A program made the translations under genes and the position numbers. Shown in pieces: positions 8,101-51,518 of a stretch of DNA of 64,000 bases (position 1 is the stretch's first letter; each line of letters opens with the position of its first letter). This DNA is from an uncultured Clostridia bacterium (GTDB taxonomy: Bacteria > Bacillota > Clostridia > Christensenellales > UBA1242), in NCBI GenBank assembly GCA_944384415.1, contig CALWTF010000005.1:12890-76889 (forward strand), read 5' to 3'. Under the pieces are notes generated by a model. That model was not told the origin of the DNA and searched no databases. It saw only the letters and a program-made list of their open reading frames with translations.

Positions 8101-8175
8101 CTCTTAATTTTTTGTTGTAATTAGTATGTGAAAAAAAATTTATTTTATGTAAAATTAGTGTTTTTTAAAAACCCG

Positions 8176-8204: not shown

Positions 8205-8295
8205 CAAATTGTTATCCGCATGAATTTGGTTTTTAAAATTTGGTTTACCAAATACCTTTATTCAGCGAGGTTGGAAAGAGGAGGGAATTTGTATA
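8205..8295 (+). promoter_or_regulatory. 5' leader of rplU, candidate ribosomal protein L21 leader element
   Basis: About 90-nt untranslated leader between the promoter and the strong RBS (GAGGAGGG). It contains hairpin atttgg-ttta-ccaaat and a duplicated aatttggttt. Firmicutes carry a described L21 leader at this position, but I did not verify the consensus structure. Confidence 0.35.
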
Positions 8296-9226: not shown

Positions 9227-9228
9227 GT

Positions 9229-9255
9229 AAAGGGTTAGTCCCTTTATTTTTTTTA
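9229..9255 (+). terminator. Rho-independent terminator of the rplU operon
   Basis: aaaggg-ttagt-cccttt followed by a T-run. Confidence 0.75.
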
Positions 9256-9310
9256 TTTACAAAATTGACTTATAAAAAATTTAATGTTAAAATCAATTTA
9301 AGGTATTAAT

Positions 9311-10159: not shown

Positions 10160-10161
10160 TT

Positions 10162-10824: not shown

Positions 10825-10852
10825 AAAACCGAGTTAAACAACTCGGTTTTTT
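10823..10852. terminator. Bidirectional terminator
   Basis: aaaaaaccgagtt-aaac-aactcggtttttt, a perfect 13-bp stem between convergent genes. Confidence 0.85.
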
Positions 10853-10863
10853 ATATGGATTAA

Positions 10864-17055: not shown

Positions 17056-17328
17056 ATTTATTATCCTTTTAAATTATATCAAAATTAGGTTTGACTAATA
17101 ACTATAAAAATATGCAACAAAAATCAAAATGATTATAAAATAAGTTTTTAATTTGCAAAAAAAAATGCAAAAAATCTTTAAAAATGGCACATTTTCGATT
17201 ATTTTCTACAAAATTTTAATAAAAAACGACAATAAATTTAAAAAATATTTTAAATTATCATAGATTTTTTGCTTGTTTATCATTTATTATGTATTCTTGT
17301 TTTATATAAAAAAAAGGATAAAATTATT

Positions 17329-28300: not shown

Positions 28301-31300
28301 TTCCAACACATCAAAGTTTTACATCATATTATGTTCAATTATATGTAATTCCTAAAGATTCTTCTGAACCTATATTAGTTCAACAATGGAATTCAAGAAC
28401 AAGCACTGGTTCAACACAAAATATTATTCAAATTAATTTTAGCACTGAAATATCTGAGTCTAATAAAAACAAGACTATAGAAGAAAATATGGTTTCAGGA
28501 CAATATTATATTACAGTAAAAGCAAATGCTTACGGTGATTATTATCTTGAAAGTGAAACCGCAGAAATGACAGAATACTTTGAATACGATGCAGTTGTTG
28601 ATGCTCCTACCGTGTTAATCAATCAAGAAAATGAAACAGCATTAATCGAATATCAAAAAGATACAAACTATATGTTGTATTATATGGCTCCAAATACAGA
28701 ACAATATGTGCAAATGTCACCAACTAATTCATTACAAACTATAAATGATGTTAAATACCGCGTTTATAACTTATCATCTGTGTTTAATCAAAGTTCATTC
28801 TCAGTAGGAATTTATTTGATAAGTGCAGTTGCTGTTAAAGTTTTTGGTGAAACTGAAACAGTAAGCAGTGCTAATTCGGTACCTGTTGAATTTAAAGTTA
28901 TGAAAAATTTTGATAGTGCTAGTTTTGAAAATGTTGAGCTTGTTTATGAATATTTAAATGGTCAAGATGTATCAACTTTTGAAGCTTCTTGGATGCAAGT
29001 TACAGTTGAAGACGGCGCAGTAAATGCAACTGATTATGAAATTGATGTATATAGCGGAAGTTCAAATTATTTACGCAATATTAAGGTGCAACTTGAAAAC
29101 AATAACTATGTAGTATATATGTATAATGTACAAAGTGATACTTGGAATAAATATAGTCATACTAATATTAACTCTAGCTTGAATACTAAAACATATAATT
29201 ACATTGTAGATGGTAATTATAAATTTACTTTATCTGAGATTACAGAAGAATCTGGCATTAAAATGTTATTAAAAGTATACGATTTATCTGATTTCACTGT
29301 TGGAACAACATATAATGTTATTATCTATACTTTAGCTAGTGAAGAACATTATTATAAACAATCATTAACTTATGGTTATAAGTCGTTTAAATTTATGGCA
29401 AAATGGTTGCCACCTACTATTTCTTTTGTTGACAGTGCTACAAGTAGTAAGTTACCAGAAAAATATATTGAAGCAAACAGCACTACTATAAGCTTTGATA
29501 CAACAGCTAATGGAACAAGTAATGTAAAATATACATTTACAGTTTATATAACTAATTTATTAACTGGTATAGCATCTGAGTTTACAACATCAGGTTCAAC
29601 TATGGCTAATGTTGGTACAGTTTTTGTAATTGATGAAAGTATGCTTTCTGATGCTGGTTTGTATCGTATTGAAGCTAAAATAGTAAACACTACAAAAGTT
29701 GAAAGTCGTTGTAGTTCACCAATTTATATATATAATGCTTTAAATATGGAAAGTCCAGTGTTAACCAGAGTTACAAAAGCAGAAACTCAATCTTCTACAC
29801 CTTCACCACTAGGTGATGGAAGTTATGAAAAAGACATTAATTTAAATTGGACATTTAATGGTTATCAATTTGTTGCCGACTTAGATTCTGAAACTTATGC
29901 TGATTTCATTTCAGGGTTAGGTTTTATTTTAAATATTGTTGAAATTGATGAAAATGGAAATATCGTTCAAAACGGTTTAAGCGCTCAGATTCCAATTTCA
30001 AGTTCTATGTTTGAAACAACAGATTGGCAAAACTTTAATTTTACAGTTTTATTAGACAATTATCCAGCTTTAAGTAATTATTTTTGGTCAAAACAATGGG
30101 CTGATGGTGAATCAAAAACACATTATGCCTTCACTTTGCAAGCAATTTCTTATCCTACATATATAACAGGTATAGTACAAAATGAAGTAAGCAATGGTTA
30201 TATTGATGTCATAGAAAATTATATTCCTCATTTTCAAACAGGCGTTTTTGAAATTTCTGGTGATGATTATCTGTACTATTTCAATAAAAATTCTGATATT
30301 TATACACTTATAGTTCGTCGTGATAATGTTTTAAGTTTAACTTCAAATATAACATTAGAAAATAATGGTGATATAGTTACTATTACTTGGGATGTTGTAA
30401 CAGACCCAACTGGCACAACTGAAGTTGGTTATAAATTTGTTTATTATACAATTGGTTATGATAACACTTACATACTTTACTACTCAAAAGATGGTTCTAC
30501 AAATGAAAACAGTATGGTATCACAACAAGTTTATTATTACAATAATAATTTCTATACTGACCAAAACCACACTACTGTTATAACTTTTGATAACACTGGT
30601 GTTTTTATGGGAGAGAATACTTGGTTTGATGCACAAGATGTAAATGGTTTTTCTATTGTTAATCAAACACAACCATTAGTATACGGTGTTTGGGTTTATT
30701 GTTATCCGATGGCAGGTGAAAGTGCATCAATTGCAGCTTCAGGTGTTTATTATCAAACAGTTGTTCGTACCGTTCAATTTAATATGCCAACCAGCATCTC
30801 ATGGTCGGTATTTACTGATGACACTGGTACACAACACGAGTTATCTTTTGCAAATAATATTCAACAACAAATTAATAATGCAAATATAAATAACTATACT
30901 TCTTTATATACATTAACATTAGGTGGCTTTGTAATTGGTACAAATGATTGGTCAAATAAAACTCCAAGTTTGAATAATGGAAATTTTGTAGCATATATTA
31001 CAGAATTATATAACGCAAATAGTTTTGTTGAATATCAAGATGAAAATGGAATAACTCATAGCAGGTTGTATGATTGGCAACTTAACGCAAAAGATTATTC
31101 TTTAAGCGTTTATGACCCTAATGTTGAGGGCGGAATTGCAACACATATTTTATACTCATCTAACACAAGTTCAGGACAATGTTATCGTTCAATAGTTATT
31201 GAAAGGAATGTACCTGCAAATGATACAACAACATTCATTATTGAAAATGGTTCTTATTATGCGCAATGGAACGAAATTTCAGATGCAACAATTTATGAAA

Positions 31301-34300
31301 TGCAATTTGTGACTGCAAATGGTCAACCAATTGGAAATAATTTATCATATTTTACTAATGGAGAAATTCCAAGTGATTATGTTGAAAAGATAACAGTTTA
31401 TATTGATTATGACCGTCAATATGCTAGCTGGCAAATGGCTGGTAGAACATACGAGCAAGAAGTTCAATACATTTCTGGTTCTGGTAATAAAATTATAAAA
31501 GTTGATTTTACACCTTTATTAAACGGAAGGGTAGCAGGTCCTTATTATTTGGCAATTTATACTGTTGCTGACCCTGCAAAATTTATTACAACAAATGGTA
31601 ATGCAACCACAAGTTCTTTGCAATTTACCTACAACAAGGCATATTCACCGGTAGAAAACATTGAGTTTGGTTTTGATAATGAAGGTATTGTACAAACAAT
31701 TTCTTGGGATGGTGCTCTAGATGCTGATGGAAGTTGGGTACACGAATATGCTTATTTTGAATTGCAAGTTTGGAAAACGGTTGGCGAAGGTGAAAATCCA
31801 TTATTAATTTCATTAAGTGGTAATAACGATAAAAGTTTAAATTGTATTTTTGAAAATGTTGAAGGAATTCAAAGTGTTTCAAATCGTTTAACAAGTATAA
31901 CTTATGATGAAGATACTAACAGAATAACTGTTAATATAGGTTCAGTATTCAGACAATATTTAGTTGAAAATGGTATTAGAATTGGTGGAGATTATACTGT
32001 AGGAATTGTTGTTATACCAGCAAGTTCAAGTAAATCATCATTTAAAGAAAGTACTCAGGCGACTGCATCTTTTGCTCACAAAGTTAAACTAGAGTTTGAC
32101 CAAAGTGTAAGCTATACAAGTTTTTTAATTGATGATTGCTTAGATGAAAGTGCATCACAAAATAATCGTGAACCAAGTTATATTGAAGACAGTGTTAATA
32201 CTGCAAACATTTATTTGTCAAATCCTGATGTTAATGGCAATTTTAATATTAAATCTATTAATATACTTCAATGGTTACCAGCTGTTCAATCAACTTCTAT
32301 AAAGGTTTATGTTAAAAATAGTGCTGGTGAATGGGTTGAAACATTGCAGTTTGACAATATAAATATTCAAACTAATAACCTTGTATTGTTAAGTGGAGGA
32401 ACTGTTCAATTACAATCAGGTAAAAATGAATTAGCAATTCAAGCTGTAGGTATTAATAATTATTATGTGGCAAGTGAATTAAAAACTTTTACAGTTAATG
32501 TTTATTATAAACACGCAACACCTACATTAAGTTTTGATATCAATTCAGATATTGTTTATACTAATGCAAGTGAAACATTTAGTGGAACGGTTAGTTCTTT
32601 AACATTACATCTTGATGACACTTGGGCAGAAAAAGAATATGGTGTTGTTATTTATGCTTATAAAGTAGTTGATGGCGTATATGAACCATATTTAGCATGG
32701 CAAACATCTGATGCGAATGGTGATGATGAAAATAACAGATTGATTTGGAAAGTTTTAAACGGAACAGCTTGTTTTGTTTATCCAGATACATATAAAGATG
32801 TTAGTAAGCGTGGAAAAGTAGTTAACTTTATGGACTTCTTCTATGAAAACGCAAATCAAACATCTGGAACTAATAAAATGGTTTCTTTAGTGGGCGCATA
32901 CGATTATGTTTTCCGAGCAAAAATATTTGCAAAGAAATCTGATTCAAGCGAACAATATATGTTAAACAGTGAGTTTTCAAATATAACTAATATATTTAAC
33001 TATACATATCAAATGGAAACACCAACTCCTTATGTTTTTGATTATGAAGGAACAAAGGAAATACACGAAAATGTAATTCGTGATGGAAATAACAGTGCAA
33101 CAGCTGTTTATGTAAAGTGGCCAATTGACCAAACTAATTTTAAAAGTGTAATTCAATATACTATTACAGTTTGGGATGGACAAGATAAAATTGATGAACC
33201 ATTTGAACGAGGAAATGGAAACCCAAATAATGCTGGAAATACGGTTGAATATTCTGCTTATATTCAAATATATTATAACGAAAATGGTGTTGCAGAATAT
33301 AGCCTTTATGCAGTTACTATGAAGACATATAAAGGTTCAGCAACAACAATAAGCGAATCGCAATACGGAAGATATTTCCAAATACAAGATGGTTATGTAG
33401 TGTTTAATATGATGCCATTTATTGAATCTACACAAAGGGTAGATCAATATATTTCAGGTGTATATAGATATCACATTCAAGCCGTTCAGGGTAGTACTAT
33501 GATTGGAACATCTACATCTGTTGGTTTAAGAGTTAATAATTATATGAATATAAGTCAGTTTGCTGGAGAATATTTTAGCGGAACTGATGTTGAAAATTCA
33601 AATTTTGATTATTACTACGAGTATCAACACAAAGTTCCATATCCTGTAACATTTACAAATGCTGTTGTTGATAATTCTGGTAATTTGGCAATTACATTGC
33701 AAGACACATACGCAACTGCTGAAACGATAGTTGTTACAGTTAATGGCAAGCAAACCATTTATAGTATTGAAACTCCTACAAGTAGCAGTACAACATATTA
33801 TGTAAATATTTCAACTTTATTATTACCAGGCGATGCAAATTCAGTTAGCATTTATATTGGTGCAGTTGAATTTTATATGCAAGGTAATCCTTATGAAGTA
33901 ACCCTTGGTTTTGATGAGTGGTCAACCGAGTTAACAACCTTGCGTGATTTACAATGGACATATAATGCTGGTAGTCACGAGATTTCTTGGAATGTAAACT
34001 TTAACAGTAATTACACTGAAGACCCAAGGTTAGATAGTGGTGATGGCGTTTTAGATGCAGATTTATTACATTATAAATTAGAGGTATTATACTCACCAAA
34101 TTTAATTAGTAACACAGAAGATTTACCTGCTAATTCTATGTTTGATTATTTTGCTACACAACTTGGTGTTGAAAAATTAACAATAGAAAATTTACAAAAT
34201 GTAGAAGGGCAAACTATAATAAAATTTTCACCACAAACAAGAAATTATATGTTTAATTTGATTGATTGTGTAAAATTAATTGATAATAGTTGGCTTGAAG

Positions 34301-37300
34301 AAAATGCATTGCGTGGTGGTTGGTATATGTTAAGATTAACATTAACAGCTAAAGACACTAATGGTATTTCTCCAAGTGGAACCGAAAATTATTTAGATGC
34401 AGTAAGTTATATAACGCCAATGATTAAACAAGTTTTAGCACCTTGGAAAATGTCTACATCGGGTGATTTTTGGGCTGCACAATCAGATTATGTATTTAAA
34501 GATACCGATAATCCAACTTTATCTCAAAAAGCAAATTGGGCAGATAACCGTGATGTAAATTGGGGAATAAAATTTACAGTTCAACCAGTATCTGGAAATT
34601 ATCCAACAACTTATCGTGTGTTCTATTGGAGAGATGGTTCTACTACTCCATTTGAAAACTATTTTGAAGTTACAGGTGAAAATGTTACATTAAATGGTGG
34701 ATATGTTTATTTGAATTTGCGTTCAGGATTTGCTAGTGTAGTTCAAGCAGGTGTATATAACTTTGCTTGGCAAGCATTGGGCGTTGCTGATTGTGCTGAA
34801 GATTCAGAATATTCATACATTTTAAGTGCAACAGCTTATCAATCTATGGATGTTCCATTAAGTTTATCTGCTTATGGTGGTTTTGGTTTAGCAAATTATG
34901 TAAGGGTTTCAGTTCCAACTTTATCTGAAACATTGTCAAACCAAACTCAAAGAAGTTGTATGATTACTTGGACTTATATCAATAATACTGGTGAATCATC
35001 TATAGACCTTTCATTTAGTGCAAGCTTAATGAATTTTGTTGGAAATGATTTACAAGATGGTCAAACTTATCCAACTGGAGTAAACGGATATGGGCCAGTA
35101 ACTGCTACAAATGAAAGAAATTATAGTTACTTTAAAAATGGTGATACAACATTAAATATGATTGAAGGTGATAATTACATTTCAATTAAAGCTGTTGTAT
35201 CTGGAAGAAATGGATATTATCTTGATTCAAGTTGGAGTACATTAAAAAAATATACTTGGGAAGTTGTTTTAAGCGCTCCTGAAATTGATATTTATGGAAC
35301 ATCTTTGACTGCTTATGATGAAAACCAAGCATATACTTACAGAACAATTCCTGAAAATGAAGAAAGTATTACAACTGACACAGTTAATGCTGTTGACACA
35401 GTAGACCGTGGTGGTCGCCGTGAAACAGAAGATTATCAGTCAACATATACAAATATGTTAACTATGTCTGTAAAAGTAAGTAAAGAATCTGTTTTAGATA
35501 ATATTACTTTACTTGAAATTATGTCTTTTGACCCAGTTACTAACTCTTTATTCTCACAAAATAATGCATTATGTCACTACTTAGTAAAAGGTGATTTAAC
35601 AACTGGTTTATGTTATTTGTATCAGAAAAAGAACATTCAATATACCAATAATGCAATTAACAGTGAGGAATGGGTTGATGCCGATGGGCGAGAAATTGGT
35701 ACTTGTTCGTTAAATGCTGATGAATCTGTAACATTTATGATTAATGGTTTTAAAATTTACGAGTTGTTACCAACAGTTACATATGTAAATGTAAAAGTTA
35801 AAACTGAAACAGGTGAAGAAACAACATTTACAGGAACTAAAGATTTTGCCAATATTCCTCAAACATATCGTTTTATAATGCGTTCATACAGTGAACTTAC
35901 AAGTTCAGAAGATTCTGGATTTAACTATAATCATACTTTGCGTTTAATTGCTCCAGAAGTTACAGAAGTAAACTTTACAGGTTCAAGTATTGAAGTGTTA
36001 GATGGTCAAAAATTTATAAACAATGATTTGCAACAAAGTTATGAAATTGTTTTAAATATTGATAAGGTTTCAAGAAATGCTAAATGGCTTATGCTTTATG
36101 CCTATGTTGACCAAGAAAATGGAAATAACTATTACAATGTAGACACTGGTTATAATGCTGAATATTCTATGACAAATTATGATGATTTGCGTTCAAATTG
36201 TTTAATTTATGATATTCGTGGTTTAGTTAATTTTGAAAACAGCAAATCAACTTATGGAACGATAACTTTAACTATATTGAAAGATAGTAGTTTATGGGAA
36301 TTTATAAATGCAAATACTCCTAATGTGTTCTATTTCGCTGCACAGGCAGTAAGTGAATTAGGTTATGCTGAAGACCCAACGGTTTGGGAAGGTGATTGGT
36401 ATGATGATTATACATTAGACAAAGTTCAGCTTTCGCAAATGCAATTAAGATATTGTGAGTCATATATAGGTCAACCTATGAATTGCATTATTTATAGACA
36501 ATTTGAGGAAGCACAAATTAATTTAAAACTTGATTATGGTCAAGTTTCAACAAATGAACAACCAACAGCACTTACCGATTCAAATGTTAAACAAACTGTT
36601 AAATATAATAATTCTGATTTATCAACCAATCTTGCTATTGATAATTTAGCACTTGACCCATATTTAATTGTTGAAGAAAATGATTATGCAAACGCATTGT
36701 TGTCTCACGAATATGTTGAAGCACAAAAATATGCAGGTTATGAAATTACCGTTGGTTTACCAAGCGGTTTAGAAAAATCTAAAACTGTTTATTCAATGAT
36801 GAATGAAGAAGGTGCCCAAGGTTCAGGTTTAATGGATGCAACAACATTATTTGACCAACTTAACAGCACTAATCCTGCAAGATATTATTTTGAAGGAAAT
36901 AATTATGTTTGCGTAACTATGCTTGAGGACCCTTGTATTTATGATTTATTATTCTCGTTGTTTGCAGAAAACAAAACTGAGGCAACTATGACCGGCGGTG
37001 TTTGTTACATAAAAATAAGAATTATAAGAGAAACAAGAACAACAGTTAGTAAATCGAAAAATTTCTGGGTTTCACAAGATAATTCTGATTTAGATACATT
37101 AGATTTTGTGTTCTACTTAAGACCTGATGCTGTTAAGTTAACTTTAGGTAATGCAGTTTTTGATGCTTCTAATCCTTTAGTTGTGGATTGGGAAACAACA
37201 AATAATGAAAATGAGTTGTTATACCCAAACAATATTCCATTACAATGGACAGAAAGTTCAAAGTTTATGAGCACATATAAAATTTCAATTTTAAGAACAA

Positions 37301-39609
37301 CTGCAACTCAAGGTATGGGAATAAACTTTGTTTATAACTTTGACCAAGGCGCAGCAGCTTATGGCAAAACCTCGGTAAACTTAGCTGCTCCTTCAACTGG
37401 TTGGGGTGGAAATAAATCTATTTATGGTGAATTAACTGCTTCAACAAGATTTAATAATTGGGATGAAGACCAAGTACATCAAAGCAGACAACAGGCAACT
37501 GTTTATGAAATATTTATTGAAACTAATGCTATTGTAGATTCAACAGTAACTGCATCTAGCAAATGTATTGGAAAATCATATTTGTCTGGTGCTGCTGATG
37601 GTTACTTGAACACAGAAAATGTTACATATTATAACTTACAGTTAAAATATAATGTATATAATGATATAGTTTTAAAAAGTTCTGGAACTGAAAGTTCAAC
37701 AGTTGATTTAACTGGTGAAAGGGCTACAATGGGTAGTGTAAATAATGGCTACAGTGTTTCATTTAACACTAGAACCAATGGAAATGCTGGTGCAAGTATA
37801 TCTTTAAATTATGCAGGAACTTTTGATTATATGGCATATACTACTGTTGAAGCTACTGGTCCATTTACTTATAAAAACAATGGTGGAAGTTTTGTTGCAG
37901 TTCAAGCTACTAAGAATAAAACTGTTGAAGGTTTTAGTGCATTAATTTTGCGTGATGCAATAAATAATTTAATTGGTGAAAATGGTGGAGCTGGTGGTGT
38001 TTATACAATTAGCTATCATATAAGTTACACTCAATCTGGAACTTGGAATGAAACAACCCCATATTTAAGCAGTGAAGAAAGTAGAACATTTACTTATGAA
38101 TATTTCAGATTAGTTGATAATGCTCAAATGACAGTTATGCAATCAGGTGATGGTGTAAACTTTAGGTCTAGTTATCAAGCAACAGCAAATTCATTCTCTT
38201 ACACCTTCTATGGTCACTATTCAATTGATATGTATCAAGTTAATGCTAATACAAACTCAAAAGTGCAAACCAGAACTTATATAGGAGGGTTTGACCCATA
38301 TTCAGTTGTTGGTGGAAACGGTACATCTGGAAGTAATTCGTATTATTACAAAGCTTTTGATGATACCAAGTGTGATGCATTAAGTGACAGAGCTATTTCA
38401 AATGCTTCAAGTTTCACGAGTAATTGCTATACCTATTTCCCTGGTTATATTCAAGGTGGAAAAAATCAATTTATCTATACAATAACAGCTGGTGATACAA
38501 AATATAACTTAAAATATCAAGGTTTAGTAACATTAGATGAGTATATGATTTTAAGTTCATATGCTCAAATGGTGCAAGCAGAATATGGTTCAACACACAC
38601 TGCAACATTAGAAGATTATCACACTGAATATTCTGCAGAAGAATATTTGGTAGATTTTGATGGTTTATCTCATGCTTATGTAGTAACAAACAATAAAGTT
38701 AGTGCAAATCTTTCAGAGCTTATTTCAACAGTAACAATGATGTATGCTAACGCTTTCTCATACAGTTACAGTTTAAGTTATTCTTCCTATGCAACATCAA
38801 CACAAAGTGATTATAGTGGTGAATATCAGGTAATAACAAAAAACACAAGTTCGAAATCCGATTCAGGAAAAACCACTTATTCTAAAACAAAATCCGGTGT
38901 AACTGAAACTATTGCACTAGGGGATAATTGCTATAAGGTTACAGGTGCAACATTTAGTGTAAGTTGTAAGTCTGGTTTTGCAAGTGTTATTGAAGAAGGT
39001 GGAACTAGTACAATAACTTTGACAGATAAGTTAGTTAGTATATCTGCTGGCGCTTCAGAAACTCAAACTATATTGGAAACAAGAGTTAGTATTGTTCCTT
39101 CACCTTTGGTTTACGGCAGCGGAGTAGCTCAGGAGAGTTTTACAGCAAAAGCTGATATAGAAATTACAAAAAATGCATTAGCTTACTATAGAAGTGATTT
39201 TTCATTAGTTGTTAATTACTCAGAGTCAGGAAGCACAACCCATTATTGGACACACAGACACGAAAATAAAGTTACAGGTTTGTTTGGTTCAGAATGGCTT
39301 TGGACTATCAGTAGTGAAAGTTCCCCAGGCGGTTCGTTTAGTTGCAATGAAGTGATAACTTTAGATGCAAAGCAAAAAGAACAAAAAATTGTTAAATCAG
39401 TAACAACATTAGAAGAAACAAAGAAAAGACCTAATGATAGTAGTGGATTTTGGACTAAAGAAGTATATTATGATGAATATGTTGAATATACAAGGAATTA
39501 TACATTTAGTGCACAGTTGAATGCTACTAATAAGTCTAATCCTGAGGGTGGAACAACATATATACCTGCTCATCACTCGTCTTCTGGTCTTGCTGGTTTC
39601 TTAAATTAA
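25369..39609 (+). CDS. Giant membrane-anchored surface protein (4,746 aa) made of many diverged FN3-like modules
   Basis: Uninterrupted 14.2-kb ORF starting 32 nt after the previous stop, with RBS GGAGGA. The N-terminus is MSKYKPRGRGRKNS plus one TM helix (aa 17-38, nt 25417-25482). Then come modules such as ISWNEVNGADSYEIYLQ, LSWNKINNASSYRVYLYQ, LSWAPVENALTYKVYIND and LSWLPVENASNGYIVMING. No LPXTG, SLH or choline/cell-wall-binding repeats were recognised. Confidence 0.9.
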   Translation: MSKYKPRGRGRKNSLPTIGAIILVILLVGIICLFGLIFRPSSESSSGPLNTPENIQVYKTGSDEEGWKYFVSYDEVKGSDKYVIHIDDMFTTSSSATVTDITKFITDAKVYSIGVQAVNNKISSYSSSIVYTEYSNAMQLATPQVTRQNETFLWGSINNATSYTLEVSYGSTVDEYSVTTPNFDLSPILNATKDDPTATKFTVKVKASYSGDLLWLESNYSNSVEYVITKTLANPILTYFTDSVVEEEEVKILHKISWNEVNGADSYEIYLQKLGSSYELIQTLIHPIELEFDLTNYVSEVGNYSVYIKAISDQEYTISSSSSTQQFIITHKLATPMITEAIAEGEYMKVSWVPGDDLNLQTHYYLELYNANTNAIVLGVDVYGTNYSFLLSTIPEGAYRMVVTAKHNTQPNLYIDSEPSTSVDRNIEPKITSPSQIIYVQEKPSSTASLSWNKINNASSYRVYLYQIVGEQEVPFGNVINQTGNTLTLPFTTAGIYYVKVMALATESSFYQDSDYSEATECLFREYLGKTTSISMNDDNTILSWAPVENALTYKVYINDVEIEATIQDTSATNMGEIFSNVELYPSSETVPYRISVRAIGEDGGIYADGEVETIYFYLIRKLDMPTGLSYEQTPNTNEVTLSWLPVENASNGYIVMINGVAPVELQNITETTCSIGSYLLPGTNNILIGANQCTNYAASNYASFETNPTFTYYMQPLSNFSITADVVEGSVTYYASFTTHKYANFYLFNFYASTGDVYTGQSAQRIYSTSNEIVTFVVDYEWIKRYDDCITTVEILTAYDENLQGSTESNFNPAYIIGDGKNTSYSHSVTTYYTYTNESVLVMIDGNSVEIEETSMTSRKISWLYPTSYIENTSMFYITITKIDAVNGNSSSNYVVVASSGVESDIEGYQKFTWLFENLDVGEYTVKLQAISSNPNIANSGSTFANFVLSIQQQKPDGLNIKYDETSGDIVAVWNMIPTHQSFTSYYVQLYVIPKDSSEPILVQQWNSRTSTGSTQNIIQINFSTEISESNKNKTIEENMVSGQYYITVKANAYGDYYLESETAEMTEYFEYDAVVDAPTVLINQENETALIEYQKDTNYMLYYMAPNTEQYVQMSPTNSLQTINDVKYRVYNLSSVFNQSSFSVGIYLISAVAVKVFGETETVSSANSVPVEFKVMKNFDSASFENVELVYEYLNGQDVSTFEASWMQVTVEDGAVNATDYEIDVYSGSSNYLRNIKVQLENNNYVVYMYNVQSDTWNKYSHTNINSSLNTKTYNYIVDGNYKFTLSEITEESGIKMLLKVYDLSDFTVGTTYNVIIYTLASEEHYYKQSLTYGYKSFKFMAKWLPPTISFVDSATSSKLPEKYIEANSTTISFDTTANGTSNVKYTFTVYITNLLTGIASEFTTSGSTMANVGTVFVIDESMLSDAGLYRIEAKIVNTTKVESRCSSPIYIYNALNMESPVLTRVTKAETQSSTPSPLGDGSYEKDINLNWTFNGYQFVADLDSETYADFISGLGFILNIVEIDENGNIVQNGLSAQIPISSSMFETTDWQNFNFTVLLDNYPALSNYFWSKQWADGESKTHYAFTLQAISYPTYITGIVQNEVSNGYIDVIENYIPHFQTGVFEISGDDYLYYFNKNSDIYTLIVRRDNVLSLTSNITLENNGDIVTITWDVVTDPTGTTEVGYKFVYYTIGYDNTYILYYSKDGSTNENSMVSQQVYYYNNNFYTDQNHTTVITFDNTGVFMGENTWFDAQDVNGFSIVNQTQPLVYGVWVYCYPMAGESASIAASGVYYQTVVRTVQFNMPTSISWSVFTDDTGTQHELSFANNIQQQINNANINNYTSLYTLTLGGFVIGTNDWSNKTPSLNNGNFVAYITELYNANSFVEYQDENGITHSRLYDWQLNAKDYSLSVYDPNVEGGIATHILYSSNTSSGQCYRSIVIERNVPANDTTTFIIENGSYYAQWNEISDATIYEMQFVTANGQPIGNNLSYFTNGEIPSDYVEKITVYIDYDRQYASWQMAGRTYEQEVQYISGSGNKIIKVDFTPLLNGRVAGPYYLAIYTVADPAKFITTNGNATTSSLQFTYNKAYSPVENIEFGFDNEGIVQTISWDGALDADGSWVHEYAYFELQVWKTVGEGENPLLISLSGNNDKSLNCIFENVEGIQSVSNRLTSITYDEDTNRITVNIGSVFRQYLVENGIRIGGDYTVGIVVIPASSSKSSFKESTQATASFAHKVKLEFDQSVSYTSFLIDDCLDESASQNNREPSYIEDSVNTANIYLSNPDVNGNFNIKSINILQWLPAVQSTSIKVYVKNSAGEWVETLQFDNINIQTNNLVLLSGGTVQLQSGKNELAIQAVGINNYYVASELKTFTVNVYYKHATPTLSFDINSDIVYTNASETFSGTVSSLTLHLDDTWAEKEYGVVIYAYKVVDGVYEPYLAWQTSDANGDDENNRLIWKVLNGTACFVYPDTYKDVSKRGKVVNFMDFFYENANQTSGTNKMVSLVGAYDYVFRAKIFAKKSDSSEQYMLNSEFSNITNIFNYTYQMETPTPYVFDYEGTKEIHENVIRDGNNSATAVYVKWPIDQTNFKSVIQYTITVWDGQDKIDEPFERGNGNPNNAGNTVEYSAYIQIYYNENGVAEYSLYAVTMKTYKGSATTISESQYGRYFQIQDGYVVFNMMPFIESTQRVDQYISGVYRYHIQAVQGSTMIGTSTSVGLRVNNYMNISQFAGEYFSGTDVENSNFDYYYEYQHKVPYPVTFTNAVVDNSGNLAITLQDTYATAETIVVTVNGKQTIYSIETPTSSSTTYYVNISTLLLPGDANSVSIYIGAVEFYMQGNPYEVTLGFDEWSTELTTLRDLQWTYNAGSHEISWNVNFNSNYTEDPRLDSGDGVLDADLLHYKLEVLYSPNLISNTEDLPANSMFDYFATQLGVEKLTIENLQNVEGQTIIKFSPQTRNYMFNLIDCVKLIDNSWLEENALRGGWYMLRLTLTAKDTNGISPSGTENYLDAVSYITPMIKQVLAPWKMSTSGDFWAAQSDYVFKDTDNPTLSQKANWADNRDVNWGIKFTVQPVSGNYPTTYRVFYWRDGSTTPFENYFEVTGENVTLNGGYVYLNLRSGFASVVQAGVYNFAWQALGVADCAEDSEYSYILSATAYQSMDVPLSLSAYGGFGLANYVRVSVPTLSETLSNQTQRSCMITWTYINNTGESSIDLSFSASLMNFVGNDLQDGQTYPTGVNGYGPVTATNERNYSYFKNGDTTLNMIEGDNYISIKAVVSGRNGYYLDSSWSTLKKYTWEVVLSAPEIDIYGTSLTAYDENQAYTYRTIPENEESITTDTVNAVDTVDRGGRRETEDYQSTYTNMLTMSVKVSKESVLDNITLLEIMSFDPVTNSLFSQNNALCHYLVKGDLTTGLCYLYQKKNIQYTNNAINSEEWVDADGREIGTCSLNADESVTFMINGFKIYELLPTVTYVNVKVKTETGEETTFTGTKDFANIPQTYRFIMRSYSELTSSEDSGFNYNHTLRLIAPEVTEVNFTGSSIEVLDGQKFINNDLQQSYEIVLNIDKVSRNAKWLMLYAYVDQENGNNYYNVDTGYNAEYSMTNYDDLRSNCLIYDIRGLVNFENSKSTYGTITLTILKDSSLWEFINANTPNVFYFAAQAVSELGYAEDPTVWEGDWYDDYTLDKVQLSQMQLRYCESYIGQPMNCIIYRQFEEAQINLKLDYGQVSTNEQPTALTDSNVKQTVKYNNSDLSTNLAIDNLALDPYLIVEENDYANALLSHEYVEAQKYAGYEITVGLPSGLEKSKTVYSMMNEEGAQGSGLMDATTLFDQLNSTNPARYYFEGNNYVCVTMLEDPCIYDLLFSLFAENKTEATMTGGVCYIKIRIIRETRTTVSKSKNFWVSQDNSDLDTLDFVFYLRPDAVKLTLGNAVFDASNPLVVDWETTNNENELLYPNNIPLQWTESSKFMSTYKISILRTTATQGMGINFVYNFDQGAAAYGKTSVNLAAPSTGWGGNKSIYGELTASTRFNNWDEDQVHQSRQQATVYEIFIETNAIVDSTVTASSKCIGKSYLSGAADGYLNTENVTYYNLQLKYNVYNDIVLKSSGTESSTVDLTGERATMGSVNNGYSVSFNTRTNGNAGASISLNYAGTFDYMAYTTVEATGPFTYKNNGGSFVAVQATKNKTVEGFSALILRDAINNLIGENGGAGGVYTISYHISYTQSGTWNETTPYLSSEESRTFTYEYFRLVDNAQMTVMQSGDGVNFRSSYQATANSFSYTFYGHYSIDMYQVNANTNSKVQTRTYIGGFDPYSVVGGNGTSGSNSYYYKAFDDTKCDALSDRAISNASSFTSNCYTYFPGYIQGGKNQFIYTITAGDTKYNLKYQGLVTLDEYMILSSYAQMVQAEYGSTHTATLEDYHTEYSAEEYLVDFDGLSHAYVVTNNKVSANLSELISTVTMMYANAFSYSYSLSYSSYATSTQSDYSGEYQVITKNTSSKSDSGKTTYSKTKSGVTETIALGDNCYKVTGATFSVSCKSGFASVIEEGGTSTITLTDKLVSISAGASETQTILETRVSIVPSPLVYGSGVAQESFTAKADIEITKNALAYYRSDFSLVVNYSESGSTTHYWTHRHENKVTGLFGSEWLWTISSESSPGGSFSCNEVITLDAKQKEQKIVKSVTTLEETKKRPNDSSGFWTKEVYYDEYVEYTRNYTFSAQLNATNKSNPEGGTTYIPAHHSSSGLAGFLN

Positions 39610-39635
39610 AAGTTATTTTAACTTGTTTTTAAATA

Positions 39636-39672
39636 AAAAGAAGTATAAAGTTTAAGTTTATACTTCTTTTTT
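39636..39672 (+). terminator. Strong Rho-independent terminator of the giant operon
   Basis: Perfect 14-bp stem aaaagaagtataaa / tttatacttctttt with loop gtttaag and a T tail. Confidence 0.85.
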
Positions 39673-39720: not shown

Positions 39721-39749
39721 TTGTATTTTAATAAATTGTATGATATACT
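39721..39749 (+). promoter_or_regulatory. Candidate promoter of the AAA+ ATPase gene
   Basis: TTGTAT (39721-39726), 17-nt spacer, TATACT (39744-39749) preceded by TGa (extended -10). Confidence 0.45.
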
Positions 39750-39781: not shown

Positions 39782-42127
39782 ATGAGAAATGTATTATCAA
39801 GAATAAAAGATATTGTAGAATCGGTTGAAGAGCCAGAATTAAAAGTAAAGGATTTATTAAATAAAGTTACAATTTCGGAAATTTTACAATCTTTAAATGC
39901 TTATGATTCTATATTTTTACCAACAGAAAAAATTTTATCAAGAACAAAAGTTAAACCATCAGATTATGCGATAATGAATGGAGCAATACCTATGCCAAAT
40001 TCTATTTGGGATAGATGGATTTTTTATGAGAGTTCAAAAGATAAAACCAATTTAAGTAATATTTATTATGATACAACAAAAAGTATAGCTCCTGTAATTG
40101 CTTTAGATACTAGTGTAGTAATTTCTTATATGAAAAAATCAATAGATTTTAAAATTGAACCAGATTTAGATAACAATTTTTCTAGTTCTCAAATTTCTAA
40201 AATGTCAGATTATACTATGGAATTAGGATATTTTCCACAAGATATAGCTTCAAATAGTGATGAATTAGAAAGATTATTTAAAAAGGGTTTAATTACTGCA
40301 ACTGGGAGAAGTTATGTTGGCTATCTTGATGATAAAAATACGATTGTTCAAAATTTAGAATACATTTATAAAGGTGTAAGATATGTAAGGGTTAGTTTAC
40401 CAACTAGTGTTTTGGATAATAAGCAATTTTATATTGATAAACCTAATTTTTATAATAAAAAAGAGTTGTGGGCAAAAGTTCAACCTATTAAGTGGTATAT
40501 TGTAAATTGGGATAATTTACCAAAAGAAATTAATCCGTATGGTAAAAATTATGATAAAATAATTTTGGCAATTTCTACAAGCTCATTAATTGGTGGAGTA
40601 CCTTATGTTGTTAAAAGCAATGTTACAAAAAACAAGGATTTAATTTGGCAAAATTGTTTGATTAGGGCTTTGTTGAATGGTTATAATATTTATGAAGAGC
40701 TAAGTAATGGCAATGGTAATTTTGATTATCGTGCTCAAATTAATTTTGATTTTAAAGGGAACGGTTTTTATGACCAAGTTTTTTTGGATAGTTTAAATAA
40801 AAGTGCTGATTTAACTAACCAAGAAGAAATTAATGAAAATGATGTAATTTATGATGATGGTGAGTTTTTAACAACTAAAACGCGACTTGAAAGGCTTAAT
40901 CCTGATAAAACTCCTAAATTACAACGACGCTTAATGACTGATACTGAAATTATAAAAAGTTGGATAGATTCAGGTGAATCGGTTTTATTGCGTGGTCCAT
41001 CAGGTATTGGAAAAACAGAAAGAATTAAAAAATGTTATCCAAATTTAATTTATATTAAACTAACAAATAATATGTTTCCTGAAAAGGTGGTGGGGTCTGT
41101 GAATTTACAAACAGGACAATTAATACCACCTGATTTTGCAAAAGAAGCAATTATGGCTTGTGCAAATGAAAAAGAAAAAAAACTTATTAAAGAAAACATA
41201 CAAAATTTATATGAATTTGCTGATATAATTTATGAGCGTTCTAAAAACAGAGATGATAAGATAGTAATTTTATTGGATGAATTATTAAATGTTAAACCAG
41301 CTGTGCAATCGCTTGTTTATTCTCTTGTTTTAAATAAAATGGTAGAGTCAGGAAAAGGTTTAAAATTACCTAATAATGTTGTAGTGGTAGCTACTGGTAA
41401 TCAAAAAAAATATTCCAGCGTTGCTGAAGATTTAGTAGAACCATTAGAGAAACGCTTTGACCACATTTTAGATATGGAGCCAAAAGTTAATGAATGGTTA
41501 GTAGAGTATGCTATACCTAATAAATTGCATTCCACAGTAATAGGATATATTCTAACTAAATATATTGAAAGTGGTAAAAGTGAAGATAGAAACAAAATAG
41601 GATATTTTTATGAAGAACCAGAAGTTGGAGAATTACATTTAGATAAAAATGGTTGTCGTGGTAGAACAAATGACCCTCGTGGCTGGGCTTCAATTTCAAA
41701 AATGCTTTATAATTTTGAAGAAGATTTAAAATCTGGCAAGTTTATTGGTAAAGATGTGGAATCTTTATTAGAAACTACAATTAATTCAAAATTAAGAACA
41801 GAATGGGCAGCTGAATTTTTGGATTATTATAACTGTCCAACAATTTCAATAGAAGATATAGTAAAAAAACAGTATAAAGCAACAGATTTACCAACTAATA
41901 TAAATGAAAAATTTGCAGTTTTAGCTGGTTTGCTTAATGCCAATGATAAAGAATTTAATGCTTGTAGGAAGTTTATTGAAGAATATTGTTCGCCAGAATA
42001 TGTAAAAATTTATGATATGTATTGGGCAGGTAATGATGAAAATCGTATTGAAAAAGTGGCTGAGTTGGAAGAAATGAGTATGTTTGACTCTATAACTAAA
42101 GGTAAAAACCAAGAAAAAGTTAAATAA
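39782..42127 (+). CDS. AAA+ ATPase (AAA_5 / MoxR-McrB-like core) with a 380-aa N-terminal domain of unknown function
   Basis: Walker A LLRGPSGIGKTE (nt 40994-41017 encodes GPSGIGKT), Walker B IVILLDELLN, sensor-1-like VVVVATGNQ. N-terminal motifs are ELGYFPQ, WAKVQPIKWYIV and LIWQNCLIRALLNGY. No signal peptide or TM helix. Confidence 0.8.
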   Translation: MRNVLSRIKDIVESVEEPELKVKDLLNKVTISEILQSLNAYDSIFLPTEKILSRTKVKPSDYAIMNGAIPMPNSIWDRWIFYESSKDKTNLSNIYYDTTKSIAPVIALDTSVVISYMKKSIDFKIEPDLDNNFSSSQISKMSDYTMELGYFPQDIASNSDELERLFKKGLITATGRSYVGYLDDKNTIVQNLEYIYKGVRYVRVSLPTSVLDNKQFYIDKPNFYNKKELWAKVQPIKWYIVNWDNLPKEINPYGKNYDKIILAISTSSLIGGVPYVVKSNVTKNKDLIWQNCLIRALLNGYNIYEELSNGNGNFDYRAQINFDFKGNGFYDQVFLDSLNKSADLTNQEEINENDVIYDDGEFLTTKTRLERLNPDKTPKLQRRLMTDTEIIKSWIDSGESVLLRGPSGIGKTERIKKCYPNLIYIKLTNNMFPEKVVGSVNLQTGQLIPPDFAKEAIMACANEKEKKLIKENIQNLYEFADIIYERSKNRDDKIVILLDELLNVKPAVQSLVYSLVLNKMVESGKGLKLPNNVVVVATGNQKKYSSVAEDLVEPLEKRFDHILDMEPKVNEWLVEYAIPNKLHSTVIGYILTKYIESGKSEDRNKIGYFYEEPEVGELHLDKNGCRGRTNDPRGWASISKMLYNFEEDLKSGKFIGKDVESLLETTINSKLRTEWAAEFLDYYNCPTISIEDIVKKQYKATDLPTNINEKFAVLAGLLNANDKEFNACRKFIEEYCSPEYVKIYDMYWAGNDENRIEKVAELEEMSMFDSITKGKNQEKVK

Positions 42128-42287
42128 GCGATTTATTAAGATATTATAAAAAATTACATTTTAAAGTATTAGTTTTTTATTAATAATTTAAAATTATGTT
42201 TAAGTTTTTTATTATTGTTAATTAAAAAAATTTACAAAAAAAATTAATTTAAATTTGTTTTATTTAATTTACATTTAGCGAGGTTTT

Positions 42288-44024
42288 ATGACAAAAATTA
42301 AAGGTACAAAAAATTTAAGAAAAATGATTCCTTATTTTAAGGGGTGTAAATTTTTAATATTTTTAACTTTTTTGTTACAATTAATATATTTAATTTTTAC
42401 AGCTTTTGAACCATTAATAATTTCGGAAATTATAATAAACCTTACAGAAGGTGTTTATAATAATGCACTATACTATGTTGCTATTTTTTTATGTGTTGCC
42501 ATAATAAAGTCGTTAATGCCAAGTTTTATGACATTAACTTCGAACAGATGGATAAAACAAGGCGCTTGTAATTTAAAAAATGATTTATTTTCAAAAGTTT
42601 TAAGTATTAATAATTTAAAATTAGACACTATTAGAAACAATGAAATAATTTCAAGGTTGGGGAAAAATTGCTACGAAGTTAGCTATACTTATAGAAAATT
42701 AATTACAAATTTAAACTCTTCAATTGCTGGTTGTATATATATTTTTATTGGTTTTTATTATAATTTTTGGATTTCTTTTTACATTTTAATAACTTGTTTA
42801 ATTATTTTAATGTTAAATGTTATTTTTGAAAAAATTAGAATTAAAAAAGATTTAGAATTTGATAACCTTAATGATGTTTATTCAAGCTTTAAAAATGAAG
42901 CAATACGAGGTGTTAAAGATGTAAAGATGCTTGGAATAAAATATAAAGTAATAGAAATGGTTGATAAAAATCAAAGAGATTATTATTCAAAGCAAATTGC
43001 ATTTTATGATAAACACACTTGGTTAATTTTTATTTTAAACTGTGTTTATGCTATTTCTTATGTTGGTTTTTTTGGTATATCTGCTTGGTTTATGATGAAT
43101 AATTGGCTTTCATTAGCAACTTTCGTTGTTTTATTTATGTATATTGGCAAAATAAGGTCATCAGTTTTAAGTTTAAAAGATATAAAAAACGATTTGCTTT
43201 CTGGAGAAAAAAATGCAATCAGAGCATTTGAATTTTTGAATGATTTGGAATATCCTAAGGAAAAATATGGAACTATTAATAAAAATTTAGTAGGTAAAAT
43301 TGAATTTAAAAAGGTATCTTTTTCCTATTCTGATGATAAAAAATTGATAGAAAATTTATCATTTAAAATAAATCCAAACAGTATGATAGCTTTTGTTGGT
43401 GTTAGTGGAATAGGAAAAAGTACTATTATTTCTCTTATTCAAAAAAGTGTTGTAGCAAATTCCGGTGAAATTTTATTAGACGATGTTAATATTAATGATT
43501 TGGATGAAAAATCTTTAGTTAATAGCATTGGTGTGGTTTCACAAACACCTTACATATTTAATTTAACTATAAAAGAAAATTTAAAACTAGTAAAACCCGA
43601 TGCTACAGATGAGGAAATAGAGAAAATATGTGAAAAAGTTCAATTATCTGAATATATAAAATCATTACCAGATGGTTATGATTCACTTTTGGGTGAAAAT
43701 GGAATATATTTATCCGGTGGACAAAAACAAAGATTGGCTATTGCAAGAGTTTTATTAAAAGATAGTAAAATTTTATTGTTTGATGAAGCTACTAGTGCTT
43801 TGGATAATGAAACCCAAGAAAAAATTAAACAAGTTTTAAATTCTTTAAGAGAAAATCATACCATTATTATTGTAGCTCACAGATTATCAACTATTGTTGA
43901 TTGTGATAAAATATTCTTTTTATCTGAAAATGGGGTAGAGGCCGAAGGTTCTCATAACGAATTATTACAAAAGTATAAGCCATATAAAAAATTATATAAA
44001 TTAGAAACAGAAAATGATAATTAA
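42288..44024 (+). CDS. ABC exporter, fused permease/ATPase (MsbA/type I exporter family)
   Basis: Six-TM ABC_membrane half followed by Walker A GVSGIGKST, signature LSGGQKQRLAIAR and Walker B ILLFDEATSALD. Confidence 0.88.
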   Translation: MTKIKGTKNLRKMIPYFKGCKFLIFLTFLLQLIYLIFTAFEPLIISEIIINLTEGVYNNALYYVAIFLCVAIIKSLMPSFMTLTSNRWIKQGACNLKNDLFSKVLSINNLKLDTIRNNEIISRLGKNCYEVSYTYRKLITNLNSSIAGCIYIFIGFYYNFWISFYILITCLIILMLNVIFEKIRIKKDLEFDNLNDVYSSFKNEAIRGVKDVKMLGIKYKVIEMVDKNQRDYYSKQIAFYDKHTWLIFILNCVYAISYVGFFGISAWFMMNNWLSLATFVVLFMYIGKIRSSVLSLKDIKNDLLSGEKNAIRAFEFLNDLEYPKEKYGTINKNLVGKIEFKKVSFSYSDDKKLIENLSFKINPNSMIAFVGVSGIGKSTIISLIQKSVVANSGEILLDDVNINDLDEKSLVNSIGVVSQTPYIFNLTIKENLKLVKPDATDEEIEKICEKVQLSEYIKSLPDGYDSLLGENGIYLSGGQKQRLAIARVLLKDSKILLFDEATSALDNETQEKIKQVLNSLRENHTIIIVAHRLSTIVDCDKIFFLSENGVEAEGSHNELLQKYKPYKKLYKLETENDN

Positions 44025-49777: not shown

Positions 49778-50242
49778 ATGAAGAAAATATTTTTAGTAAT
49801 TTTTTTGTCAATTTTATTATGTTTTAACATTCAAAATTCGCAATTAAATTTTTTTGCAACAAATTTTGAAGGCAAATATGTTTTTTATACATCTCAAATT
49901 TTAAATGATGAAAATGTTTCCGTTGAAAAAAGTGGAATGGGTTATGTTTTAACTTGTAGCACTAAATATGCAACTAAAATTAAAAGCAAATTAAACATTA
50001 ATTTAATAAAAGGTGAAAGTTTTTCATTTTTAGGTGTTAAAAGTGAAGTTGAAAACTTAATAAAACGATTTAATATAAAAGTTTTGAATAAAGAAGTTTT
50101 AGATGAAATTTTAGTTATTGATGGTTACAGTTCAAAATTTGGTGAATTTGTTTGTACAAGTTGTGGAAATGTAAATATACAAATAGCATTCAACAAAGGT
50201 ACAATAACTGTTGGTACTCCTTTGATTTTAGGAAGTTTTTAA
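49778..50242 (+). CDS. Secreted hypothetical protein (154 aa), possibly YwmB/DUF1779-like
   Basis: N-terminal signal-like segment MKKIFLVIFLSILLCF. The C-terminal NIQIAFNKGTITVGTPLILGSF is reminiscent of the YwmB family C-terminus, from memory only. Confidence 0.4.
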   Translation: MKKIFLVIFLSILLCFNIQNSQLNFFATNFEGKYVFYTSQILNDENVSVEKSGMGYVLTCSTKYATKIKSKLNINLIKGESFSFLGVKSEVENLIKRFNIKVLNKEVLDEILVIDGYSSKFGEFVCTSCGNVNIQIAFNKGTITVGTPLILGSF

Positions 50243-51235: not shown

Positions 51236-51264
51236 AAAAAACAGTTCAGATGAACTGTTTTTTA
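51236..51264. terminator. Bidirectional terminator between acpP and spoIIID
   Basis: aaaaa-acagttc-agat-gaactgt-ttttt. It overlaps the spoIIID stop codon. Confidence 0.75.
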
Positions 51265-51518
51265 TTTGTTATTTTTTTTAATTTTAACCATCGTTCTTTA
51301 GTGCTTTTACCTCCGCGAATGTGTTTTAAATTTTTATTTAAGTCTAATAATTTTTGAACCTTGCTTCCAAGTTTTTTATTAATTTTAGGAAGTTTTTTAT
51401 GCAGATAATTATGAACAGTGCTTTTAGATATATTAAAATAAACTGCTGTTTTTCTAACAGTGCTTTTATTTTTTAAAAAATAATTAGCAATTTCTATACA
51501 TAAATTTTTATTTGACAT
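51246..51518 (-). CDS. spoIIID: Sporulation transcriptional regulator SpoIIID
   Basis: 90 aa. ...STVRKTAVYFNISKSTVHNYLHKKLPKIN...LKHIRGGKSTKERW follows the SpoIIID HTH and C-terminal basic region. Confidence 0.88.
   Translation of the reverse strand: MSNKNLCIEIANYFLKNKSTVRKTAVYFNISKSTVHNYLHKKLPKINKKLGSKVQKLLDLNKNLKHIRGGKSTKERWLKLKKITNKKQFI

Follow-up and report, generated by a model that had tools for sequence, protein, structure and literature searches.

The ATPase gene and its domain organization

We analysed a 64,000-nt stretch of DNA from an uncultured Clostridia bacterium (contig CALWTF010000005.1), called the window below, and focused on the gene at 39782..42127 on its forward strand, which encodes a 781-aa ATPase. 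The open reading frame (ORF) is intact from ATG to stop, and the gene order on the window is a 2286-aa ORF, a 4746-aa ORF, the 781-aa ATPase, an ABC exporter (42288..44024) and aspS. A preliminary description, made from the DNA letters alone, had reported a series of motifs for this gene, and every motif that it quoted was found in the 781-aa translation. The gene is divided as follows.

39782..42127, forward strand: complete ORF of an orphan member of a family with a DUF6273-like region and a MoxR-like AAA+ core (ORF list, Pfam, homologue search)
39899..40186, forward strand: aa 40-135, the half-module that bears the variable region of a diversity-generating retroelement (DGR) in homologues; decayed and AT-rich here (alignment, composition)
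40199..40801, forward strand: aa 140-340, a beta-rich half-module with GYFPQ, PIKWxIxNW and WQN..R..LNGY (invariant residues; predicted local distance difference test [pLDDT] 85-98)
40937..41479, forward strand: aa 386-566, alpha/beta core of AAA+, MoxR/AAA_5 type (Pfam, Foldseek, phrog_1297)
40994..41017, forward strand: Walker A GPSGIGKT, aa 405-412 (translation; invariant in the family alignment)
41264..41281, forward strand: Walker B VILLDE, aa 495-500 (translation; family alignment)
41480..42124, forward strand: aa 567-781, the helical lid with the C-terminal region; conservation within the family is very high, and phage 'MoxR' ATPases share this part

The motifs of the ATPase half are LLRGPSGIGKTE (aa 402-413), IVILLDELLN (494-503) and VVVVATGNQ (533-541). 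From Walker B downstream, DE (499-500), the sensor-1 motif ATGN (537-540) and EPLEKRF (553-559) are invariant in the family alignment, and we take ATGN...EPLEKRF, with its post-sensor 'L.EP L..RF' pattern, to be the counterpart of the MoxR signature ATxNP...LpEAqlDRF. The N-terminal half contains IFLPTEKIL (44-52), KPSDYAIMNGA (58-68), ELGYFPQ (147-153), WAKVQPIKWYIV (230-241) and LIWQNCLIRALLNGY (287-301).

The AAA_5/MoxR-like assignment of the core was borne out by both profile and structure searches. The Pfam AAA_5 profile matched aa 401-559 (E 3.4e-5) with 24.3 bits against a cut-off of 22, a small margin, and weaker generic AAA matches were also present. phrog_1297 ('ATPase') matched aa 389-759 with E 5e-34. 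The ten best PDB matches of Foldseek to the full-length AlphaFold model (pLDDT 73.8) were all chains of the NorQ hexamer (E 7e-6 to 7e-5; template modelling score normalised to the target 0.46-0.53), the top hit being 9qh4 (E 7e-6), and HslU and ORC scored lower. No transmembrane segment or signal peptide was apparent in the protein, as had been stated beforehand for its N-terminal ~380 aa: the highest 19-residue Kyte-Doolittle mean was 1.54 and the N-terminus is charged. Residues 1-380 gave no Pfam match at E<=1 and no NCBIfam family; their nature became apparent from homologues, as described below. The gene product thus holds as a cytoplasmic protein with a MoxR/AAA_5 core and a DUF6273-like N-terminus.

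Homologues lie in a conserved operon with a DGR and a metallopeptidase-vWA gene

The preliminary description knew of no fusion of such an N-terminal region to an AAA+ core, but the fusion proved to be common. In a set of 5.8 billion proteins searched at E<=1e-3, at least 689 protein clusters carry a DUF6273-like region fused to AAA_5, and many of these homologues have precomputed matches to PF19789 and PF07728. One cluster is the same protein at 99% identity; the other listed full-length matches are approximately 50-60% identical and mostly 740-800 aa long. A scan of one genome per species of the Genome Taxonomy Database (GTDB) gave 95 relatives, nearly all in gut metagenome-assembled genomes (MAGs) labelled as Clostridia, Christensenella-like, Caccovivens, Bacilli or 'Tenericutes', and 76 loci were fetched with up to 10 kb of flank. 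Across the family, identity to the window protein is approximately 55-80% over the C-terminal 416 aa but only 22-44% over the N-terminal 345 aa. Some members are much longer, such as those at L011 890-6034 (1714 aa) and L016 1455-6305 (1616 aa), P0002 (1254 aa) and L076 (992 aa); in L011, L016 and P0002, N-terminal extensions reach approximately 350 aa, and further sequence about doubles the length.

ORFs were called around the 76 loci and clustered. The homologues lie in a conserved, co-oriented operon that encodes, in order, proteins of ~193 aa and ~340-370 aa, the ATPase, optionally a ~157-aa protein, a ~127-aa protein, optionally a second ATPase, and a ~500-aa protein. Three of the partners could be identified.

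~193-aa gene: bAvd (phrog 'Avd protein of DGR', E 1e-20)
~340-370-aa gene: reverse transcriptase (RT; RVT_1 E 2e-17, phrog RT E 1e-101)
~500-aa gene: metallopeptidase plus vWA-like protein (DUF2201_N E 3e-29, plus DUF2201)

The operon therefore reads bAvd, template repeat (TR), RT, ATPase, 127-aa protein and DUF2201 protein (Zn-metallopeptidase plus vWA). Of the 57 loci whose downstream flank is 3 kb or longer, 54 have the DUF2201 gene, and of the 53 with as much flank upstream, 26 have the RT. P0073 and P0002, the closest relatives after the near-identical copies, likewise have the genes for the 127-aa and DUF2201 proteins directly downstream. The 127-aa family (L010 5020-5400 and 57 other loci) and the 157-aa family (e.g. 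L027 8995-9468) gave no match in Pfam or PHROG; the PDB profile matches below E 0.01 were to fused protein-A constructs, with no stretch passing alone, and were taken as spurious. A weak hhalign match (7.5% probability) between the 127-aa family and the Walker B-sensor 1 segment of the ATPase hints at a degenerate AAA+ fragment. Directly upstream of avd, five loci (L026, L027 at 3636-4616, L044, L047 and L071) encode a ~326-aa protein with a response-regulator receiver domain, which suggests that the retroelement or the system may be regulated. Unrelated ABC exporters occur near the operon in L009 and L031.

These partners bear on an option raised in the preliminary description, that the gene encodes an McrB-like NTPase of a restriction-type system lacking its McrC partner. 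McrB, too, is classed under AAA_5, and its target-recognition domain is N-terminal and variable. However, Pfam, NCBIfam and PADLOC gave no McrB or McrC match, the top structural matches were NorQ, HslU and ORC with McrB absent from among them, no McrB/McrC-type gene adjoins the window copy or its homologues, and the partner of the homologues is a vWA-metallopeptidase, a hallmark of MoxR systems, not a PD-(D/E)xK nuclease. We give this option a close to negligible chance of being right. PADLOC returned one weak DolB (AAA) match (E 1e-5), from which we claim no membership in a known defence system.

The retroelement targets the 5' part of the ATPase gene

A segment of 80-108 nt between avd and RT is repeated within the 5' part of the ATPase gene, as at L010 (1267-1374 versus 2944-3051) and L027 (5338-5418 versus two ATPase paralogues). 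In 22 ungapped template/variable pairs from 19 loci, 289 of 320 mismatches fell on template adenines, which make up approximately 34% of the template; at single loci the counts were 19/19, 18/18 and 16/16. This bias indicates that the N-terminal lectin-like domain of the family ATPase is the variable region of a DGR. The variable region encodes the stretch between WLRS and G-x-CPAL, that is, the C-terminal end of the DUF6273 profile, and the consensus of the half-module around it is FL.S..E / DYA..NGA / WLRS / VR / CPAL. In a subgroup of 772-aa proteins (L003-L010, L014), whose N-terminus aligns over nearly its full length with the window copy, a GC hairpin CGCGC-GAA-GCGCG lies just 3' of the variable region (e.g. 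L010 3076-3098); it is in frame inside the coding sequence and is translated as a conserved SARSAS.

Many operons contain two or three ATPase paralogues in tandem (L024 at 5207-12163; L026, L027, L033, L041, L044, L047, L051 and L069). A single template repeat is common to two paralogues in L027, L044 and L047, such that one DGR serves two variable regions, and in L041 and L069 the first ~700 nt of the paralogues are 100% identical.

The N-terminal module is a circular permutant of DUF6273

DUF6273 (PF19789) has been modelled as a C-type-lectin-like fold (PMC10743442), and in phage DUF6273 targets the variable region lies at the C-terminal end of the Pfam domain (PMC11792537; bioRxiv 10.1101/2024.10.15.618418). 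The preliminary description tentatively named this domain for the window protein. It was right as to the domain, if only indirectly: Pfam detects DUF6273 in homologues ~55-57% identical to the window protein, but gave no DUF6273 match in the window protein itself. In one such homologue, P0003, a re-scan placed PF19789 at aa 3-118 (profile positions 53-171; E 3e-8). With aa 1-380 as query, an exhaustive HMMER search yielded 300 representative relatives at E<=1e-3. Of these, 51 were scanned and 15 had a DUF6273 match; the window protein aligns to these relatives at E 1e-50. The alignments indicate that the N-terminus of the window protein is homologous to DUF6273 relatives, and this holds although formal Pfam membership fails for this copy.

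The order of the two half-modules differs from that in canonical DUF6273 proteins. P0220, a canonical surface protein, has Pfam DUF6273 at aa 229-397. In pairwise BLAST, aa 107-337 of P0003 aligned to aa 22-274 of P0220 (E 5e-28) and aa 23-119 of P0003 to aa 304-398 (E 3e-4). The two half-alignments run in opposite order, and the N-terminal module of the ATPase family is therefore a circular permutant of DUF6273, in which the aa 140-340 half corresponds to the part that precedes the variable-region half in canonical proteins. Permuting P0003 in silico improved its DUF6273 match from E 3e-8 to 7e-10 and widened it modestly, from profile positions 53-171 to 33-171; the permuted window N-terminus still gave no DUF6273 match in Pfam.

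AlphaFold modelled aa 1-349 of the window protein as a single confident unit (pLDDT 84; predicted template modelling score 0.84). Confidence was low only at the ends, in short linkers (approximately 31-40 and 131-140) and at aa 71-100, where homologues carry the variable region; the full-length model likewise had low pLDDT at aa 74-93. Residues invariant in the family are kept in the window copy throughout the other half-module, namely P152, T174, G175, E193, W230, V233, P235, N242, N251, G254, W289, R295 and N299. Elsewhere, the lectin-like module is found within some giant proteins as well (P0147, P0217).

The window copy has lost the retroelement and the partner genes

Searches for the partners of the window copy cover 64 kb of its genome. 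tblastn with all sequences of the partner families (RT, Avd, DUF2201 and others) against the window gave nothing (best E 0.01). The DUF2201/vWA gene is absent from these 64 kb, and the gene next to the ATPase is the ABC exporter. Within the window no second copy of the N-terminal coding region that could resemble a TR was found, and the segment 39990-40140 contains no GC-rich homing site or hairpin but AT-rich DNA. At 40118-40135 it encodes SYMKKS where the 772-aa subgroup has SARSAS. Its GC content over 24 nt peaks at 0.50, which ranks second from the bottom among the 70 full-length members scored. Low GC peaks were likewise seen in other copies without a detected nearby partner (L022 and L025 from one MAG, L054 and L056), of which L054 and L056 have downstream sequence too short to rule out a partner.

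The variable subdomain itself has decayed. It reads WIFYES...APVIAL, with neither WLRS nor G.CPAL left, and where homologues have the variable region the window protein reads WIFYESSKDKTNLSNIYYDTTKSIAPVIAL. In the window, then, the DGR components (RT, Avd, TR, homing site) and the genes for the 127-aa protein and the vWA-peptidase are all missing, and drift has brought the variable subdomain to the genome's AT-rich composition. The rest of the protein is conserved: all family-invariant columns are kept in the ATPase half and in aa 140-340. The protein is 99% identical to P0001, found in two other metagenomes with the same neighbours, and its C-terminal 416 aa are identical in three metagenomes.

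We conclude that the window gene is probably an orphaned, fixed-sequence derivative of a DGR-diversified MoxR-vWA system. The preliminary description had suggested as one alternative an unrelated single-gene NTPase module of defence type. This came closer to the evidence; the family is a multi-gene system, however, of which the window copy has been stripped to a single gene.

Several observations weigh against this conclusion. The window copy and the two other copies differ by four non-synonymous and no synonymous changes, all in the N-terminal half, which is compatible with relaxed constraint and too few to be informative in a test of the ratio of non-synonymous to synonymous rates. Half of the loci with enough upstream sequence have no adjacent RT, so that the link with the DGR is frequent and not universal. 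Foldseek searches of the N-terminal model against PDB and BFVD gave no significant neighbour, and the lectin fold is therefore assigned from the Pfam DUF6273 matches of homologues and from models published for other DUF6273 proteins (PMC10743442). The function of every family member is predicted. Finally, our view spans 64 kb, and a DGR cassette or a DUF2201 gene may lie elsewhere in the genome.

The main alternative is that the gene is a non-functional relic, left after deletion of a DGR/MoxR-vWA operon and now drifting. The partners and the cis-elements of the DGR are gone, the variable subdomain lacks the WLRS and G.CPAL motifs as well as the Pfam signal, and the strain differences, being all non-synonymous and N-terminal, would fit such drift. 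Against this, the 781-aa reading frame is intact, every invariant and nearly every near-invariant column is kept in the ATPase half and in aa 140-340, and the C-terminal 416 aa are 100% identical in the three metagenomes. Moreover, the composition of the gene is fully ameliorated to that of the host, implying long residence without inactivation. We therefore consider a relic unlikely, and by analogy with related systems the orphaned copy is probably still an active ATPase with a frozen head.

The giant genes, the promoter and the terminator

The preliminary description proposed that the ATPase is a dedicated cytoplasmic assembly, quality-control or remodelling factor for the two giant proteins encoded upstream. 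The 2286-aa protein (18476-25336) matched Big_2 and a tissue-factor/FN3-like profile only; the 4746-aa protein (25369-39609) had no Pfam match at E<=0.01 and begins with an N-terminal membrane anchor. The ATPase gene is adjacent to the latter on the same strand, approximately 170 nt after it, and this arrangement is kept in the two other metagenome contigs, which are however from the same species at 99-100% identity. The occurrence of the N-terminal module inside giant proteins elsewhere, in P0147 and P0217, also speaks for a connection, as do two ATPase copies without a nearby DUF2201 gene that adjoin large surface-type genes: a 1046-aa protein with transglutaminase and InlB repeats in L013 (3384-6524) and a 711-aa BspA-type leucine-rich-repeat protein in L054 (12168-14303). 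With so small a sample, these last neighbours are anecdotal, and we treat the occurrence of the module inside giant proteins in the same way.

The evidence from the family points the other way. A non-family ORF of at least 1300 aa lies within 10 kb in only 3 of the 76 loci (L043, L056 and L074), and none of these is homologous to the window giants; in L043, an IS200-type transposase gene and a 121-aa family gene separate the large ORF from the ATPase gene. What the family does keep beside the ATPase gene is the DGR cassette and the DUF2201 gene. Furthermore, the N-terminus of the ATPase has no similarity to either giant, the giants start with an N-terminal membrane anchor and are presumably exported while the ATPase is cytoplasmic, and a strong terminator-like hairpin lies between the genes. 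By the criterion set beforehand, common homologues that are not linked to giant genes, the link between the ATPase and the giants is refuted; we hold a dedicated role of this kind to be very improbable and the position of the gene after the giant genes to be incidental.

The hairpin, which had been reported approximately 110 nt before the ATG, was confirmed at 39635-39671 on the forward strand, after the 4746-aa gene (15-bp stem followed by a U run; free energy -14.7 kcal/mol, z -4.4). It was missed by the pattern scanner, having fewer than three G-C pairs in its stem. The promoter proposed for the ATPase gene at 39721..39749 on the same strand (TTGTAT, 17 nt, TGaTATACT) can indeed be read in the DNA but fails the criteria of the scanner, and promoter-like matches in this AT-rich region occur at chance level (25 found versus 22.4 expected). 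It remains plausible as a candidate, no better than chance. Between the stop codon of the ATPase gene and the ABC exporter (ABC_membrane plus ABC_tran, 578 aa), 42128-42287 contains no terminator-like structure, and thus the two genes may be co-transcribed. Elsewhere in the window, which has 29% GC, are genes for Spo0A (17269-18093), a SpoIIT-like protein (49778-50242) and SpoIIID (51246-51518); the sporulation genes and the low GC content together indicate a low-GC, sporulating bacterium of the Clostridia type that uses translation table 11.

Phage relatives of the ATPase half

tblastn with the ATPase found ~23%-identical genes in 240 phage genomes. Among them is phiTE_058 (annotated MoxR), which aligned in BLASTP to aa 379-715 of the window protein (E 5e-18), and its near neighbour phiTE_060 is homologous to the DUF2201 partner of the family (E 2e-10). 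A pair of MoxR and metallopeptidase-vWA genes in jumbo phages was noted by Iyer et al. 2021 (PMC7824862), who proposed a role for it in virion assembly. Together, then, the ATPase and the vWA-peptidase make up an ancient two-gene module like the jumbo-phage pair (PMC7824862).

The window gene might accordingly be taken for a phage-derived chaperone of virion assembly, as in rV5-like or jumbo phages, that persists in a prophage remnant, and the homology of its core to phage 'MoxR' ATPases in 240 phage records agrees with this. Yet its neighbours in the window are housekeeping genes (aspS, cysS, an ABC-F ATPase gene and sporulation genes), with no phage genes among them, and identity to the phage proteins is approximately 23%. 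A search of IMG/VR found one distant relative only, which argues that the family is not phage-borne. A prophage origin seems to us extremely improbable.

A proposed diversifiable sensor-effector system

We propose a mechanism for the family that is modelled on NorQ/NorD-type pairs and on the conflict systems put forward for DGR-linked MoxR-vWA genes (PMC7159879, PMC10907252). The hypervariable lectin-like head of the ATPase would bind a cytoplasmic ligand, and the MoxR ring would then use ATP to act on the vWA partner, as in NorQ/NorD-type pairs, and so activate or deliver the metallopeptidase fused to it. The DGR rewrites a stretch of ~80-108 nt in the 5' region of the ATPase gene. The result would be an intracellular, diversifiable sensor-effector system of the conflict type. 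For the window copy, with its predicted frozen head, such an analogy suggests, as the most likely role, cooperation with a vWA partner whose gene lies elsewhere in the genome, or else that of an additional subunit or a decoy in a complete system.

A further step would be that the family is an undescribed intracellular hypervariable sensor in gut Clostridia and that the window copy has been domesticated into a DGR-independent derivative, whose frozen head gained a fixed cellular ligand; as a whole this is a long shot. The ligand could conceivably be the giant proteins or the product of the ABC exporter gene.

If the hypervariable-sensor reading is true, a DGR rewrites a permuted lectin-like head on a MoxR motor that drives a vWA-tethered metallopeptidase. 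The broader interest lies in the family: hundreds of genomes of gut Clostridia encode a cytoplasmic MoxR ATPase with a DGR-target N-terminal lectin-like domain and a paired vWA-metallopeptidase. The concept of DGR-diversified NTPase conflict systems, described so far mainly in multicellular cyanobacteria and proteobacteria, is thereby extended to gut Firmicutes. Orphans such as the window copy are natural 'DGR-off' controls that reveal the fate of such a sensor once diversification stops. For the window itself the outcome is chiefly a correction: its ATPase should not be described in annotation as a partner of the giant surface-protein operon.

Comparison with known systems

DGR-diversified MoxR-vWA systems, DUF6273 targets of DGRs and MoxR/peptidase-vWA pairs are each known separately. 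Their combination, a variable permuted DUF6273 module on the N-terminus of an ATPase in gut Clostridia, was not found in the literature searched, and large DGR surveys may list it in supplementary tables.

The phage proteins phiTE_058/phiTE_060 and the jumbo-phage pair resemble the family in the ATPase core and helical C-terminus (aa ~380-760) and in the homology of the vWA-peptidase. Unlike the family, the phage ATPases are ~410 aa long and have neither the N-terminal lectin-like module nor a DGR; the phage pair includes a vWA-peptidase gene, whereas the window gene has no such neighbour. NorQ/NorD and CbbQ/CbbO work on the principle proposed for the family, in which a MoxR ring engages its vWA partner, and NorQ is the best structural match to the core. 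They differ in sequence (~12% identity), their ATPase carries no sensor domain, and their task is to insert or remodel metal centres in specific enzymes.

Tentaclins and Mtd-like DUF6273 targets of DGRs (PMC10743442, PMC11792537, bioRxiv 10.1101/2024.10.15.618418) carry the same lectin-like module, with the variable region at the C-terminal end of the Pfam domain. In tentaclins the module is also at the N-terminus of the protein and the variable region close to the gene's 5' end, as in the ATPase family, and persistence of the target after loss of the DGR has been reported for gut-phage DUF6273 targets too. Those gut-phage targets, however, are proteins for receptor binding or decoration that act outside the cell and have Ig or FN3 domains, in contrast to the permuted module fused to an intracellular AAA+ motor.

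The cyanobacterial and gammaproteobacterial ternary systems (Kaur et al. 2020, PMC7159879; Dore et al. 2024, PMC10907252) likewise encode a MoxR ATPase, a vWA protein and a DGR together. As in the family, the DGR (RT, Avd, TR) hypermutates a ligand-binding domain of the C-type-lectin type, and the targets are predicted to be cytoplasmic. The arrangement differs: the ternary systems place the variable CLec/FGS domain at the C-terminus of the vWA protein or of a separate target, whereas the family has it at the N-terminus of the ATPase itself. No VMAP component, the third member of the system of Kaur et al. 2020, was seen in the family operons, for which no VMAP profile search was made, and the window copy stands without any partner. 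The vWA partner of the family is of the DUF2201 type with an N-terminal Zn-metallopeptidase, unlike that of the ternary systems, and the hosts of the family are gut Clostridia as against the multicellular bacteria that carry the ternary systems.

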